In this document: in pieces, positions 1,421-49,073 of the stretch | How positions within the stretch are numbered: position 1 is the stretch's first letter | Layout: every line of letters starts with the position of its first letter | Source of the DNA: Acidobacteriota bacterium | GTDB taxonomy: Bacteria > Acidobacteriota > Vicinamibacteria > Vicinamibacterales > CAVVIG01 | Assembly: GCA_016195265.1 (NCBI GenBank) | Contig: JACPZW010000009.1 | Location: 1,125-65,124 of the forward strand | Direction: 5' to 3' | DNA: 64,000 nucleotides | Made by a program: the position numbers and the translations under genes | The notes under the pieces: generated by a model | Database searches by the model: none | What the model was told of the DNA's origin: nothing | The model's input: only the letters and a program-made list of their open reading frames with translations

Positions 1421-2917
1421 ATGTCGCAACTCTTCCAGCGGAAACCGATCGCCGCGCTTGTCCCTGCTGGCGACGTCGCCGAGGGCGCGCCAGGGCTGAA
1501 GCGCTCGCTCGGCGCCGGCGATCTGATCATGCTGGCGATCGGCGCCGTGATCGGCGCCGGCATCTTCGGCGCGATCGGCACGGCTGCCGCGGGTCAGCTG
1601 GGGCCCAACGGAGAAGTGATCCGTCAGGGCGCGGGACCGGCGCTGGTATTTTCGTTTCTGCTGCTCGGCGCGGCATGCGCGCTCGCGGGCCTCTGCTACG
1701 CCGAGCTGGCCGCGATGATTCCGCAGGCCGGGAGCGCCTATGCGTACTCGTACGCGACGCTCGGCGAGCTGGTCGCGTGGATCATCGGCTGGGACCTGAT
1801 TCTCGAGTACGCCGTCGGCAACGTCGCCGTCGCGATTTCGTGGGGCGACTACTTCAACACGCTGCTCAGGGGATTCAACGTCTCGCTGCCCGACTGGCTG
1901 ACGACCGGCTATCGCACGGCGCTGCTCAGCTCCGATCCCAAGATTCACGGACTGCTCGCGTCCGCGCCGCACGTCGCGGGCGTGCCGATTCTGGTTCACC
2001 TGCCGGCGGCGGCAATCGTGATGGTGATCACCTGGCTGCTGTCGCGCGGCGCGCGTGAGAGCGCGACGGCCAACAACATCATGGTCGTGATCAAGCTGAT
2101 GGCGCTATCGCTCTTCGTGGTTGTCGGCGCCACGCATCTCAAGAGCGCGAACTACACCCCGTTCGCGCCCAACGGCTTCCGCGGTGTCCATCAGGGCGCG
2201 GCGATCGTGTTCTTCGCCTACATCGGCTTCGACGCGATCTCCACCGCGGCCGAGGAGACGAAGAACCCGCAGCGCAATCTGCCGATCGGCATTCTCGGCG
2301 GTCTCGCGATCTGCACGGCCATTTACGTCATCGTCGGCGGCGTACTGACCGGCATGGTGCCGTACAAGGAGCTCGCGGTCGCCGATCCGCTGGCCCGCGC
2401 GCTCGAGCTGGCCGGCTTCAAGACCGTCGGCTGGATCGTCGCGCTGGGCGCGGCGGTCTCGATGTCCGCGGTGCTGCTGGTTTTCCAGTACGGCCAGCCG
2501 CGCATCTTCTTCGCGATGGCGCGTGACGGCCTGCTCCCGAAATGGGCAGCGAAGCTCCATCCGCGCACGCGCATTCCCTGGGCGACGACGCTCTTCACGG
2601 GCGTGTTCGTGGCAGCGTGGGCCTTGATCGGCGACGCCGGAGAAACCTACGACCTCACGAATATCGGCACGCTGTTCGCGTTCATCCTCGTGAGTATCGG
2701 CGTGCTCGTGCTGCGCTACACCGAACCCGATCGCCCGCGGCCGTTCAAGGTGCCGTTCGTATGGCTGGTCTGCGTGCTGTCTGCGGCCGGATGCCTGTTC
2801 ATCATGTACGGTCTGCCGCAGGCGGCGTGGGAGCGCTTCGGCATCTGGCTCGTGATCGGCCTGCTGCTGTATTTTACCTACGGGTTCACGCACAGCAAGT
2901 TGCGGGTCCGTACGTAG
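1421..2917 (+). CDS. APC-family amino acid permease
   Basis: 498-aa ORF with about 12 hydrophobic segments. The N-terminal LKRSLGAGDLIMLAIGAVIGAGIF motif is typical of the amino acid/polyamine/organocation superfamily. Confidence 0.9.
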   Translation: MSQLFQRKPIAALVPAGDVAEGAPGLKRSLGAGDLIMLAIGAVIGAGIFGAIGTAAAGQLGPNGEVIRQGAGPALVFSFLLLGAACALAGLCYAELAAMIPQAGSAYAYSYATLGELVAWIIGWDLILEYAVGNVAVAISWGDYFNTLLRGFNVSLPDWLTTGYRTALLSSDPKIHGLLASAPHVAGVPILVHLPAAAIVMVITWLLSRGARESATANNIMVVIKLMALSLFVVVGATHLKSANYTPFAPNGFRGVHQGAAIVFFAYIGFDAISTAAEETKNPQRNLPIGILGGLAICTAIYVIVGGVLTGMVPYKELAVADPLARALELAGFKTVGWIVALGAAVSMSAVLLVFQYGQPRIFFAMARDGLLPKWAAKLHPRTRIPWATTLFTGVFVAAWALIGDAGETYDLTNIGTLFAFILVSIGVLVLRYTEPDRPRPFKVPFVWLVCVLSAAGCLFIMYGLPQAAWERFGIWLVIGLLLYFTYGFTHSKLRVRT

Positions 2918-3100
2918 GGCGGGTCCTTTCGGACCCGCTGGTGCGCTCGGTACGTAGGGCGGGTCCTTTCGGACCCGCTGGTGCGCTCGGTGCGTAGGGC
3001 GGGTCCTGTGGACCCGCCTGATCCGCCGGGTCCGAAAGGACCCGGCCTACACAGGTCCAAAAAGGACCCGGCCTACATGGTCCAGAAGGACCCGGCCTGT
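2914..3100. repeat. REP/BIME-like cluster of about six GTAGG-headed GGGTCC...GGACCC hairpin units
   Basis: GTAGG heads sit at 2914, 2954 and 2994, with CCTAC at 3046-3050 and 3072-3076 and a degenerate CCTGT at 3096-3100. There is a 40-nt direct tandem repeat at 2910-2949/2950-2989. The cluster fills the whole intergenic gap. Confidence 0.85.
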
Positions 3101-4114: not shown

Positions 4115-4135
4115 CGCGACCCCGAAAGGGTCGCG
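4115..4135. terminator. Bidirectional hairpin between convergent genes
   Basis: CGCGACCC (4115-4122) pairs with GGGTCGCG (4128-4135) around the loop CGAAA. There is no clear U-tract. Confidence 0.45.
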
Positions 4136-4954
4136 CTACGTTCGAGTGGCCGAGGCCAACACCGCCGGCATCGGCAACACGAACGCATCGTCTGTCGCGT
4201 AGCGTTCCACTCCGCAGCGGACTGCCGCACGAATGGCGGCGAGCGCGTCAGGCATTTGCGCGCGCAGCAAGGCCGCCGTGCGAACACCGCCGCGCGACAC
4301 CGCCTCGAACACGGCGTCGGCGGAGCGGAGACGCCACGCCAACGCCAGCGTGCGCACCTCGATGTTCGAGAAGCCCGCGTGCTCGAGAGTTCTTCCGAAT
4401 TCCTCGGCGGCACTGAAACGGAAGAACGGCGGCCCTTCGGGCAGCGGCACGTTCGGATTGCCGTGCGCCTTCACGGCCTCGAGCACTATTCCGAACCCGA
4501 CGGTCTGCTCCGGCGCCGCCCACACGGTGAGCGCGTAGCGGCCGCCGCGTCGCAGCACTCGATGCGCCTCACCGATCGCGACGTCCGGACGGGCGAGATG
4601 GAGCAGTCCGAAGTTCATGACGACGACGTCGAACCACCCCGCGTCGAACGGCAGCGCCTCGGCGTCGCCCTCGCGAAACGTGAGTGACGGATGCCGTTGT
4701 CGTGCTTTGGCGATCATCGCCGAGGAAAAGTCGAGGCCGACGACGGTCGCGCCGCGCGCCGCGGCGGCGCCGGCGATGAAGCCCGGTCCGGTCGCAACGT
4801 CCAGCAGCCGCGTTCCGGTGGTGACTTGTGCCGCGTTCAGCAACGCTTCAGACGTCTGCGACGTCAGCGCGCCGAACGCGTCGCCGTAGTGTTCCGAGGC
4901 GCGCTCCCAGCCGGCGCGCTCGAAGTCGTGGAAGGCCGAGGAATCCGTTCCCAT
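4136..4954 (-). CDS. Class I SAM-dependent methyltransferase
   Basis: LLDVATGPGFIAGAAAARGATVVGLDFS is motif I, and the sequence has a Methyltransf_11-like core. The start is the ATG at 4954 (MGTDSS). The upstream 60 aa of the track ORF overlap the uvrA start region. Confidence 0.85.
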   Translation of the reverse strand: MGTDSSAFHDFERAGWERASEHYGDAFGALTSQTSEALLNAAQVTTGTRLLDVATGPGFIAGAAAARGATVVGLDFSSAMIAKARQRHPSLTFREGDAEALPFDAGWFDVVVMNFGLLHLARPDVAIGEAHRVLRRGGRYALTVWAAPEQTVGFGIVLEAVKAHGNPNVPLPEGPPFFRFSAAEEFGRTLEHAGFSNIEVRTLALAWRLRSADAVFEAVSRGGVRTAALLRAQMPDALAAIRAAVRCGVERYATDDAFVLPMPAVLASATRT

Positions 4955-4997
4955 GGTGTGCTGAACGATTATAGGCGTGCTACGATTTAGGATTCCC

Positions 4998-7844
<2,847 letters not shown>

Positions 7845-12595: not shown

Positions 12596-12644
12596 GGCGC
12601 GGAGCTTGCTCCGCCCCGAAGGGCCGATCAAGGTCGGCCCCTAC
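12592..12644. repeat. REP-doublet element of the second GTAGG family
   Basis: The element GTAGGGCGCGGAGCTTGCTCCGCCCCGAAGGGCCGATCAAGGTCGGCCCCTAC contains two hairpins. Its GTAG head overlaps the lysA TAG stop codon. A near-identical copy lies in reverse orientation at 43957-44005. Confidence 0.8.
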
Positions 12645-29823: not shown

Positions 29824-31866
29824 TCAAGGCTCCGTGGCGAGGTCGGTCGCGGTTTGCAGTTCTTCCCATTGATGCATTAGGCCGCCGACCTGCCACATCA
29901 GGGCCTGATGACGGTCGATGACCGGCTGCGCCGCCGCGCGATTGTCGTAGAAGCCCGGCGCGGCCATCTCCTGTTCGATCGTCCGGAGCGACGCTTCGCA
30001 CTCGGCGATGCGCGCCTCGATCTCTTCGAGCCGCGTGCGGCGCGCATGCGCCGCGCGATTCTTCTTCCGCGCCTCGGCGTCGACTTTTTTCCGCTCTTCG
30101 CGTGACGGCTTCTGCGGATCGGCAGGAGGTGTAGGCCGGGTCCTTTGGACCCGGCTGCCAGGCGGGTCCGAAAGGACCCGCCCCACGTCTTTTTTCTTCC
30201 CGACCTGCCCCTGCTGCCTCTCCCGCCCCTCCTGCCTCTCCTGCCCGTCCCGCCTATCGTCCCGGTGTTCCTTGTGCCAGAGGAATTCCTTGTAGGTTCC
30301 CGGGAACGCGGTCGCCTCGCCGTGGCCGATCTCGATGATCTTGGTCGCGAGCCGTTCGACGAAATACCGATCGTGCGACACGAAGATCAGCGTCCCGCCG
30401 TAGTCGACCAGCGCGTCGAGCAGGACTTCCTTCGAGTCGAGATCGAGATGGTTCGTCGGCTCGTCGAGCAACAGGGTGTTCGACGGCCGCAGCAGCATGC
30501 GCGCCACGGCGAGGCGGGTGCGTTCGCCGCCGGACAGCACGCGCACGGGCTTGTACACATCGTCGCCCGAGAACAGAAAGCCGCCGAGGATGTTGCGGAT
30601 CATCGGCACCATTTGCAGCGGCGATCCGGAGGAGAGGGTTTCGTAGACGGTCGGGCCCGGATCCAGCCGCGTCGCTTCGTCCTGCGCGAAGTACTGCATG
30701 ACGACGTTGTGGCCCGGCGTGCGCTGGCCGGCGCCGGGCGCTTCCTCGCCGGACAGCATCCGCATCAGCGTCGACTTGCCGACGCCGTTGGGGCCGACGA
30801 GCGCGGTTCGGTCGCCCCGCTCGATGTGCAGGTTGAGATCCTTGAACACGACGAGGTCGCCGTACGCCTTGCGCGCGTGCGTGAGCTCGAGGACGGTCCG
30901 GCCGCTCTTGGCGCAGACCGGGAAATCGAAATGGATCTTCTTGCGCTCGGGCGGCACTTCGATCGGCACGACCTTCTCGAGCATCTTGATCCGGCTCTGC
31001 ACCTGCGACGCCTTGGTCGCCTGATACCGGAACCGGTCGATGAACATCTTCACGCGCGCGATTTCCTCGTCCTGCTCGCGCTTGGCTTTCCGTAGGGTCT
31101 CGATGCGCTCGTGATGCTCGACGAGGTACCCGCTGTAGTTCGTGTGGTAATCGGTCAGCGTGCGCAGCGTCAGATCGGCGATGCGCGTGACGACCGCGTC
31201 GAGGAAGAACCGATCGTGCGACACGAGGATCACCGCGTGCGGGTAGGCGTTGAGGTACTCCTCGAGCCAGTTGCGCGCCTCGAGGTCCAGGTGGTTCGTC
31301 GGCTCGTCGAGGAGGAGCAGGTTCGGCTGGCCCAGCAGCAGTTTGGCGAGCGCGATGCGCATCTGCCAGCCGCCGGAGAAGGTCTCGGTCGGCCGCACGA
31401 GATCACGCTGCGAAAAACCGAGGCCCTGGAGCACGGTGGCGGTCTTCAGTTCGATGCTGTAGCCGTCCCGCACGCGAAACGCGTCTTGCAGATCGCTGTA
31501 GCGGTGCAGCATCGCGTCGTGCTCGGCTTCGGGGATCCCCTGATCGCCGAGCCGCGCCTCGAGCGCGTGCATCTCGGCCTTCATGTCGAGCAGCACGCCG
31601 AACGCGCTCGACGCTTCCTCGAAGACCGTGTGTCCGCTGTGGGTGAGTCCGTCCTGCGGGAGGTACCCGACGGTCAGCGCCGCCGGTTTGAGGATCGCGC
31701 CCGAGTCGGGCTCGTCGAGCCCGGCCATCATCCGCATCAGCGTCGTCTTGCCGGCCCCGTTCGGGCCGCACAGGCCGACGCGCTCGCGATCAGTGATCTG
31801 CCACGTGACGTGATCGAACAGGACGCGATCGCCGAAGGACTTCGTGAGCTCCGAGAGCTGGATCAT
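29824..31866 (-). CDS. ABC-F family ATPase with two ABC domains and a C-terminal coiled coil
   Basis: Walker A motifs GPNGAGKTT and GPNGVGKST, signature motifs LSGGWQMR and LSGGERTR, and no transmembrane segments. The ATG overlaps the upstream stop codon (ATGA). Confidence 0.9.
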   Translation of the reverse strand: MIQLSELTKSFGDRVLFDHVTWQITDRERVGLCGPNGAGKTTLMRMMAGLDEPDSGAILKPAALTVGYLPQDGLTHSGHTVFEEASSAFGVLLDMKAEMHALEARLGDQGIPEAEHDAMLHRYSDLQDAFRVRDGYSIELKTATVLQGLGFSQRDLVRPTETFSGGWQMRIALAKLLLGQPNLLLLDEPTNHLDLEARNWLEEYLNAYPHAVILVSHDRFFLDAVVTRIADLTLRTLTDYHTNYSGYLVEHHERIETLRKAKREQDEEIARVKMFIDRFRYQATKASQVQSRIKMLEKVVPIEVPPERKKIHFDFPVCAKSGRTVLELTHARKAYGDLVVFKDLNLHIERGDRTALVGPNGVGKSTLMRMLSGEEAPGAGQRTPGHNVVMQYFAQDEATRLDPGPTVYETLSSGSPLQMVPMIRNILGGFLFSGDDVYKPVRVLSGGERTRLAVARMLLRPSNTLLLDEPTNHLDLDSKEVLLDALVDYGGTLIFVSHDRYFVERLATKIIEIGHGEATAFPGTYKEFLWHKEHRDDRRDGQERQEGRERQQGQVGKKKDVGRVLSDPPGSRVQRTRPTPPADPQKPSREERKKVDAEARKKNRAAHARRTRLEEIEARIAECEASLRTIEQEMAAPGFYDNRAAAQPVIDRHQALMWQVGGLMHQWEELQTATDLATEP
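30131..30254. repeat. REPIN plus G/C heptad tract inside the ABC-F coding sequence
   Basis: The REPIN is GTAGGCCGGGTCCTTTGGACCCGGC-tgccag-GCGGGTCCGAAAGGACCCGCCCCAC (30131-30186). A CTGCC-rich periodic tract follows at 30205-30254. On the minus strand the whole block is read in frame. Confidence 0.8.
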
Positions 31867-43960: not shown

Positions 43961-44005
43961 GGGCCGCCTTGGTCGGCCCGAGGGCGGAGCAAGCTCCGCC
44001 CCTAC
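43957..44005. repeat. REP-doublet element, reverse copy of 12592-12644
   Basis: The element is GTAGGGGCCGCCTTGGTCGGCCCGAGGGCGGAGCAAGCTCCGCCCCTAC. Its GTAG head overlaps the fsa TAG stop codon. Confidence 0.8.
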
Positions 44006-49015: not shown

Positions 49016-49073
49016 GTAGGGCGGGTCCTTTGGGACCCGCCTGATCGGGCCGGGTCCGAAAGGACCCGGCCTA
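49016..49073. repeat. REPIN: two inverted GTAGG-headed REP units
   Basis: GTAGGGCGGGTCCTTTGGGACCCGCC-tgatcgg-GCCGGGTCCGAAAGGACCCGGCCTAC. Confidence 0.88.

Follow-up and report, generated by a model that had tools for sequence, protein, structure and literature searches.

What is a repetitive extragenic palindrome (REP) doing inside a protein-coding sequence, and how does the reading frame around it hold? The question arises in a 64,000-nucleotide stretch of DNA from an Acidobacteriota bacterium (contig JACPZW010000009.1 of assembly GCA_016195265.1), which we call the window, where an inverted pair of REPs lies within the gene for a YheS-like ABC-F ATPase. REPs are GC-rich stem-loop palindromes of 20-40 bp, and a REPIN is a non-autonomous element of two inverted REP hairpins, mobilised by a REP-associated tyrosine transposase (RAYT). 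We consider it quite probable that the gene carries a tolerated, translated REPIN in a disordered linker that acts as a persistent, overwritable REP slot. On this model, a GTAG-type REPIN would have been inserted in frame, through the action of a RAYT, into the linker between the second nucleotide-binding domain (NBD2) and the C-terminal coiled coil. Its 57 nucleotides, in the GTA|GGG frame, would add a basic, proline-rich peptide of 19 residues and leave the downstream domain intact. Since the linker appears to tolerate almost any length and sequence, the insert would be effectively neutral, like extragenic DNA embedded in a gene, and across the order the slot would be occupied, decay and be re-occupied, or overwritten, by different REP families.

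A GTAG-type REPIN in the reading frame of an ABC-F gene

The host gene occupies positions 29824..31866 on the minus strand and encodes 680 amino acids plus a stop codon. Pfam places two ABC_tran domains (E 1.8e-49) and an ABC_tran_Xtn domain (E 2.3e-26) upstream of the REPIN and, downstream of it and in the same frame, an ABC_tran_CTD coiled coil (PF16326, E 7.2e-11; 29854..30039, minus strand, residues 610-671), so that the element lies between the second ABC domain and the coiled coil, as the initial annotation had proposed. Two ABC domains joined by a PtIM/ABC_tran_Xtn linker, with no transmembrane domain, mark the product as an ABC-F protein, and it is identical to an ABC-F protein annotated by NCBI (P0001) from an Acidobacteria metagenome-assembled genome (MAG). 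Among NCBIfam ABC-F models only ribo_prot_ABC_F was passed (472.6 bits; cut-off 380); of the YheS, Uup and EttA models listed, none reached its equivalog cut-off (for example, PRK10636 scored 376 bits against a cut-off of 917). We set aside a functional connection with the part that Uup plays in suppressing transposon excision, the window protein being YheS-like and short of the Uup equivalog level. The best relative of solved structure in the PDB is E. coli YheS (E 2.7e-102). The two proteins share the succession of NBD1, PtIM, NBD2, linker and coiled-coil C-terminal domain (CTD), with a disordered C-terminal extension in YheS, although the window protein falls below the equivalog cut-offs. 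We know of no REP in the E. coli yheS gene.

The initial annotation had reported a GTAGG-headed doublet at 30131-30186 inside this open reading frame (ORF), and we found it there, as two perfect 9-bp hairpins covering codons 561-579; the coding-strand translation given with it was exact. On the plus strand the doublet reads GTAGG-CCGGGTCC-TTTG-GACCCGG-ctgccag-GCGGGTCC-GAAA-GGACCCGC-CCCAC. The hairpins pair 30135-30143 with 30147-30155 and 30161-30169 with 30174-30182 across loops of 3-4 nt, and together they form a larger inverted repeat (arms 30131-30155 and 30162-30186, spacer 6-7 nt), that is, a REPIN-like doublet. Read in the direction of the gene, hairpin 1 (30161..30182, minus strand) is GGCGGGTCC tttc GGACCCGCC and encodes GRVLSDPP, and hairpin 2 (30131..30155, minus strand) is GCCGGGTCC aaa GGACCCGGC and encodes SRVQRTRPT; each has 9 bp, is fully complementary and is recovered in the RNA fold. 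The head of hairpin 2 is intact (CCTAC/GTAGG, 30131-30135). At hairpin 1 (30183-30186) the coding strand has GTGG (CCCAC on the plus strand), one substitution from GTAG, where the orthologous locus L161 retains GTAG. The term complete REPIN, used in the initial annotation, therefore holds for the two inverted hairpins but not for the heads, one of which is mutated, and in codon terms the insert is the 57 nt from 30130 to 30186.

These 57 nt, on the minus strand, form 19 codons, V561-T579 (VGRVLSDPPGSRVQRTRPT). They are free of stops, a multiple of three in length, and read as GTA|GGG, or as GTG|GGG where the head is mutated; in the alternative G|TAG frame a canonical REP head becomes a stop codon. 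From this length and this frame we infer that the element is translated as a 19-residue peptide. Directly before it lie four KKKD codons (30187..30198, minus strand), a conserved left junction of the REP slot, since KKK[DN] followed by GTAGGG or GCAGAG is also found in L161 and in a second orthologous locus, L001; residues 557-583, which span KKKD and the REPIN peptide, read KKKDVGRVLSDPPGSRVQRTRPTPPAD. The 19 REPIN codons have GC contents of 0.74/0.63/0.74 at codon positions 1, 2 and 3, where the gene as a whole has 0.69/0.41/0.88. Such a profile is unlike that of the host gene and atypical for coding DNA, and is a hallmark of non-coding sequence.

Two features adjoining the element merit separate mention. 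A perfect 9-bp inverted repeat, GGCAGGAGG/CCTCCTGCC (30116-30129 and 30228-30241), lies on either side of the REPIN and pairs as the outer stem in the RNA fold prediction; we set it aside as probably a chance feature, not conserved in L001, the closest relative. On the plus strand, 30161-30200 joins the antisense of a REP hairpin to CCCACGTCTTTTTTCTT (the KKK codons) and looks terminator-like; it was not called in the terminator scan and is not conserved in L161.

The element has a GC-rich stem-loop palindrome, a GTAG/CTAC head, an inverted pair of hairpins and a dispersed family of further copies, and departs from the usual description of a REP in its location, within ABC-F codons 561-579 rather than between genes. 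Allowing one mismatch, the hairpin core GGGTCCNNNNGGACCC occurs seven times in the window against 0.31 expected, a count reached in none of 100 shuffles, and all matches fall at exactly the three loci where the initial annotation had seen the doublet: 2914-3100, 30131-30186 and 49016-49073. Two of the three are intergenic. The first (2914..3100, no strand assigned) is a cluster of six hairpins between ORFs; the last (49016..49073, plus strand) is a canonical REPIN of the form GTAGG...CCTAC, GTAGGGCGGGTCC...GGACCCGGCCTAC, and the in-gene copy has the same arrangement.

REPs also touch the ends of ORFs in the window. The ORF at 1421..2917 (plus strand) takes its stop codon, TAG at 2915-2917, from the GTAG head of the extragenic REP at 2914-2917, and the stop of the ORF at 4136..5137 (minus strand), CTA at 4136-4138, lies within the CTAC of a REP at 4115-4139 that resembles the type C described below. 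Just past other ORF ends, at 12621-12644 and 43982-44005, there are GTAG-headed hairpins with other stems (GGGCCGA.tcaagg.TCGGCCCCTAC and GGGCGGAG.caag.CTCCGCCCCTAC, respectively); because of these differing stems, several REP families seem to be present in the genome.

Could the element be in the frame by error? The window comes from a MAG, and repeats can cause misassembly, so that the true stop might lie upstream and leave the REPIN intergenic, or the contig might have been misjoined at the repeat. The initial annotation had itself raised a hidden frameshift or an upstream stop, and this we could exclude because the frame runs on into ABC_tran_CTD and into full-length syntenic orthologues. 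The window product matches an annotated protein exactly, and in the independently assembled locus L161 (protein P0002, GCA_016195295.1) this REPIN occupies the corresponding codon; the C-terminal domain downstream is conserved between the window protein and L161. NBD2, linker and CTD lie in one continuous ORF in all 120 homologues among the matches listed (79-88% identity, 652-698 aa), and likewise at the orthologous loci with a complete 3' end. Among the closest homologues gene order is conserved on both sides, with a HisKA and a response regulator gene before the ABC-F gene and a HisKA and a sigma-54 activator gene after it. We therefore regard a sequencing, assembly or annotation artefact as extremely improbable. 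The initial annotation had left open whether the element was absorbed or inserted without breaking the frame: the frame is indeed kept, and insertion fits better than absorption, given that the C-terminal domain that follows the element is ancestral.

A hypervariable linker with a native repeat tract

We compared the gene with 164 orthologous loci, of which 80 came from GTDB species representatives, 80 from metagenomes and 4 from contigs that encode the closest proteins; nearly all of the GTDB-representative loci are labelled Vicinamibacterales or Acidobacteriota MAGs. Aligning the ABC-F orthologues, a check suggested by the initial annotation, placed the insert in a hypervariable linker between NBD2 and the C-terminal coiled coil (30091..30270, minus strand, residues 533-592), in proteins that have the CTD and the single ORF in common. 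Measured from FLWHK to KK.DAEARK, the linker ranges from 31 to 94 residues across the loci and is essentially unalignable. It contains peptide repeats of three residues, six residues and longer, such as GRE/DGR/GQV units; in L074, L141, L069 and L012 we observed in-frame tandem repeats comprising KVQEVP x4, PGERRGPAPPKLAQS x4, GSGLSAQ x3 and long GQVGRV runs. By its sequence, the linker appears to be a coding region of variable-number tandem-repeat type across the order.

An AlphaFold2 model built with 67 homologues agrees with a flexible segment. A helix ends at residue 540, residues 541-588 are modelled as coil, and residues 541-580 have a predicted local distance difference test score (pLDDT) below 50; beyond this coil stretch, coiled-coil helices at 589-634 and 643-677 reach block-mean pLDDT values of 79-96. 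Cryo-EM of E. coli YheS on the ribosome shows residues 527-637, its C-terminal extension, to be disordered (10.1101/2025.08.28.672766), and C-terminal extensions of ABC-F proteins have been described as charged, proline-rich and 'readily extended or reduced' (PMC6723617).

Next to the REPIN, and separated from it by the four KKKD codons, lies a purine-rich tract of three-codon units (30199..30258, minus strand, residues 538-556) that reads RRDGQERQEGRERQQGQVG. The initial annotation had described a G/C heptad tract here (30205-30254). A periodic tract does adjoin the element, but TRF assigns to 30204-30258 a 9-nt period, with 5.7 copies, or an 18-nt one, in line with the direct repeats there, and the product is a charged tri- or hexapeptide repeat. 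We considered whether the tract belongs to the REP element and rejected this: the REP-free orthologues L162-L164 carry it in varying copy number, and it is therefore native to the linker.

REP families in orthologous linkers

By a loose peptide regular expression, REP-derived peptides are present in the linkers of about 100 of 264 unique orthologues. At the DNA level we confirmed the GTAG-headed types A, A', B, C and D and a palindromic type F without a GTAG head. Type A, the family of the window, is GTAGGGCGGGTCC.tttc.GGACCCGCC, read as VGRVLSDPP with an optional second arm SRVQRTRP. Type A', seen in L027, has GGCGGACCC/GGGTCCGCC in both stems in place of the type-A sequences. Type B (GTAGCGCGAGCCTTTCAGGCGAGCGG ... 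GAAAGCCTCGCGCTAC) is read as ARAFQAS ... ESLALP, type C (GTAGCGCGGCCCTTTCAGGGCCGCG) as VARPFQGR and type D (GTAGCGCAGCCCTTCAGGGCTGCGC) as VAQPFRAA; type F is the palindrome GCGCTGGGG.gtgggg.CCCCAGCGC. Families A and C also have ordinary intergenic copies, in the window, at L164:4233-4258 and in L023.

Two details of stem sequence stand out. Compared with the window family, the in-gene REPIN at L027:9665-9740 is altered in both stems (GGCGGACCC/GGGTCCGCC for GGCGGGTCC/GGACCCGCC), with two compensated pairs in each arm, as would be expected if a separate REP subfamily had co-evolved with a RAYT of its own. In every type-B copy observed (for example L026:9620-9646, L005 and L087) the stem contains a tandem A-G/G-A mismatch, GCGAGCC.tttca.GGCGAGC, an observation more suggestive of a structured internal loop than of decay.

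In a neighbour-joining tree of the conserved protein parts, REP types are intermingled among close relatives. Within the window clade, L161, the closest relative to bear the REPIN, has it at the same codon as the window, with 9 of 57 nt different and the second hairpin decayed. L001, whose protein is 94% identical across the 500 residues that precede the linker, has at the same junction a decayed type-B REP (22/26 against the consensus), after KKKD and before P.ADPQKPSRE. P0003, P0004 and P0005, which belong to the window clade, have no REP in the linker. In a different clade, both type C and type D begin at one and the same nucleotide, after ...GATCGTCGTCC. Different families at an identical start in close relatives suggest, from sequence comparison, a long-lived REP slot that is overwritten. 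Because the left junction and the GTA|G frame are shared, in-situ replacement would be favoured over independent de novo insertions.

These peptides recur widely, in proteins of 80-88% identity, and one might ask whether GRVLSDPP/SRVQRTRP is instead a native, conserved motif of the ABC-F subfamily, its likeness to a REP being coincidental or the REP family having arisen from the gene. We think there is very little chance of this. With its GTAG/CTAC heads and its perfect palindromes, the segment belongs to a dispersed family that has intergenic copies in the window. Sister lineages fill this junction with unrelated peptides that derive from other REP families, the motif is absent from many orthologues, and the GC content at codon positions 2 and 3 is atypical for coding DNA. 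In a search of a 108-aa concatenate of the REPIN's six-frame peptides against other proteins, 66 word candidates were found and none had E <= 10.

Neutrality, constraint and precedent

If the slot behaves as embedded extragenic DNA, how REP-prone is it? With a strict, unbiased detector that demanded an intact GTAG and a perfect stem of >=7 bp, we counted 1.46 hairpins per 10 kb in linkers against 0.27 in the rest of the gene (5.5-fold, Fisher p = 0.014) and 0.51 in the flanks (p = 0.058), a modest enrichment. Outside the window, the type-A consensus (that of the window's intergenic copies) is matched in the linkers of L111, L145 and L161 and elsewhere at two loci, L023 and L068, although linkers make up 1.4% of the DNA examined in the family-consensus scan; with such small numbers the apparent excess is suggestive. 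Over all families 22 of 36 matches fall in linkers, a ratio that is biased as most of the consensus sequences derive from linkers. The linker is at least as REP-prone as intergenic DNA.

A bolder claim, that the linker is a preferred, long-lived landing slot for REPINs in Vicinamibacterales, overwritten by at least five families with the same GTAG junction and frame, strikes us as doubtful. Were it true, RAYT-REP targeting, or selection for the hairpin or peptide, would be set by local DNA features and not by extragenic status. Such features might include the G-rich 9-nt tract, which is possibly prone to form single-stranded DNA or R-loops. A translation factor would then steadily gain new linker peptide from mobile REPs.

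Alternatively, the hairpins could have been kept for a role in nucleic acid, the slot itself being under selection: as a pause before the C-terminal domain is made, as a barrier to 3'-5' exonuclease that yields a stable truncated mRNA, or as a protein-binding site in DNA. REPs do recur at the linker spot in many orthologues, with the higher hairpin density just described, and a 171-nt mRNA segment folds at -88.3 kcal/mol against -67.4 kcal/mol for its shuffles (z = -5.5), but a strong fold follows from being a REPIN at all. The occupancy is also patchy even within the window clade, given the REP-free linkers of P0003-P0005, and the slot is filled by different families with different stems. Among in-gene type-A copies (n=8), 92% of stem cells are paired and the 6/72 that are not show no compensation; stem mismatches in L081, L111, L145, L124 and L161 are uncompensated. 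We looked for covariation in support of a conserved structure and discarded the weak signal, since all two-sided changes come from L027, a single sequence that belongs to a different subfamily in both arms. We thus see no sign in these sequences of selection for structure. Rfam, scanned over the whole window at gathering thresholds, gave no match, and a terminator and promoter scan around the element called nothing at the REPIN, the sole terminator-like calls being at 30034-30057 (plus strand) and unrelated to it. Though conceivable, a regulatory role for the hairpins is unsupported, and we judge their retention for such a role improbable.

Some observations weigh against the tolerated, overwritable slot that we favour. 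The REPINs of the window and L161 are 84% identical (48/57), more than the four-fold degenerate sites of the gene (68%), a difference that would also suit a role in nucleic acid, and some in-gene copies match their family consensus at 25/26 positions in hosts with about 65% four-fold identity. Such conservation fits recent re-insertion or overwriting and, equally, some constraint, two possibilities that these comparisons do not separate. No precise empty-site allele was found among the orthologues, the linkers of P0003-P0005 being too diverged to define insertion boundaries. The AlphaFold2 model is mediocre overall (mean pLDDT 64), and the low confidence of the linker is supportive only. Lastly, a regular expression for RAYT motifs, a weak test, had no match in six-frame translations of the window and the 164 loci; RAYT (Y1 HUH transposase) genes are usually single-copy.

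In-frame intragenic REPs as such are already known. The first palindromic repeats described in frame within genes were the Rickettsia palindromic elements (RPEs; Ogata et al. 2000, Science 290:347, as cited in passages of PMC3733652 and PMC3184786). From those accounts, RPEs resemble our element as in-frame palindromes that add a peptide segment to genes that stay functional, and differ from it in belonging to other sequence families, some of CGTC type, and in a host that is an obligate intracellular alphaproteobacterium, where here we have a GTAG REPIN doublet. RPE-1 elements, at about 100-150 bp, are longer than the 57-nt REPIN.

GTAG and CGTC REPs in frame within genes were subsequently catalogued in several phyla, as a documented minority of REP copies (Di Nocera, De Gregorio, Rocco 2013, BMC Genomics 14:522; PMC3733652). 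Passages of that paper describe single or dimeric copies that encode about 7-30 residues, often starting with VG or VA (for example VGPALAAG and VAGVADIG...), propose that they are neutral by virtue of lying in flexible linkers or loops, and note orthologous recB genes of two Xanthomonas species with different REPs at about the same site. The likeness to the present case is close, with GTAG-headed, GC-rich palindromes in frame and VG.../VA... peptides that resemble those of the ABC-F linker; unlike ours, the catalogued elements, as those passages have it, come from complete genomes of other phyla, mostly Opitutus terrae and Rickettsia conorii. The passages of its text and supplement that we consulted report neither an ABC-F interdomain linker nor order-wide occupancy of one slot by at least five families. 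Two aspects may be new: that the host site is the linker of a YheS-like ABC-F protein in Vicinamibacterales, and that so broad a range of families occupies one coding slot.

The behaviour of the slot recalls that of REPIN-RAYT systems, in which a pair of inverted REPs, separated by a short spacer, is the mobile unit (Bertels and Rainey 2011, PMC3116915). In Pseudomonas, REPINs persist at orthologous positions in conserved extragenic spaces while their types differ, and 'may be overwritten' (REPORTH, 10.1101/2024.10.14.618302). The persistence and overwriting match what we see in the ABC-F linker; by contrast, the Pseudomonas positions are extragenic, the ABC-F slot is inside an ORF, and our weak regular expression revealed no cognate RAYT. 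The locus may thus extend the picture of a conserved extragenic space with an overwritten REPIN from Pseudomonas to a coding region in Acidobacteriota, and is a clean example of selfish 'extragenic' DNA predicted to be translated, apparently without harm, within an essential-type translation factor. Disordered interdomain linkers can, it seems, act as honorary intergenic space. Less documented is the finding that close relatives, their left junctions being identical, differ in the REP family that fills a single coding slot; in this natural system the turnover of REPs could be timed against a protein-coding clock. For annotation and the building of protein families, a practical consequence is that linkers of ABC-F and comparable proteins should be expected to contain peptides derived from REPs (VGR..., VAR..., VAQ...).

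In the surroundings of the gene we made one further observation: a few kilobases downstream of its ABC-F locus, L161 has a short ORF with a CRISPR_Cas6 Pfam match (L161:16743-16901) and a phage-integrase gene.

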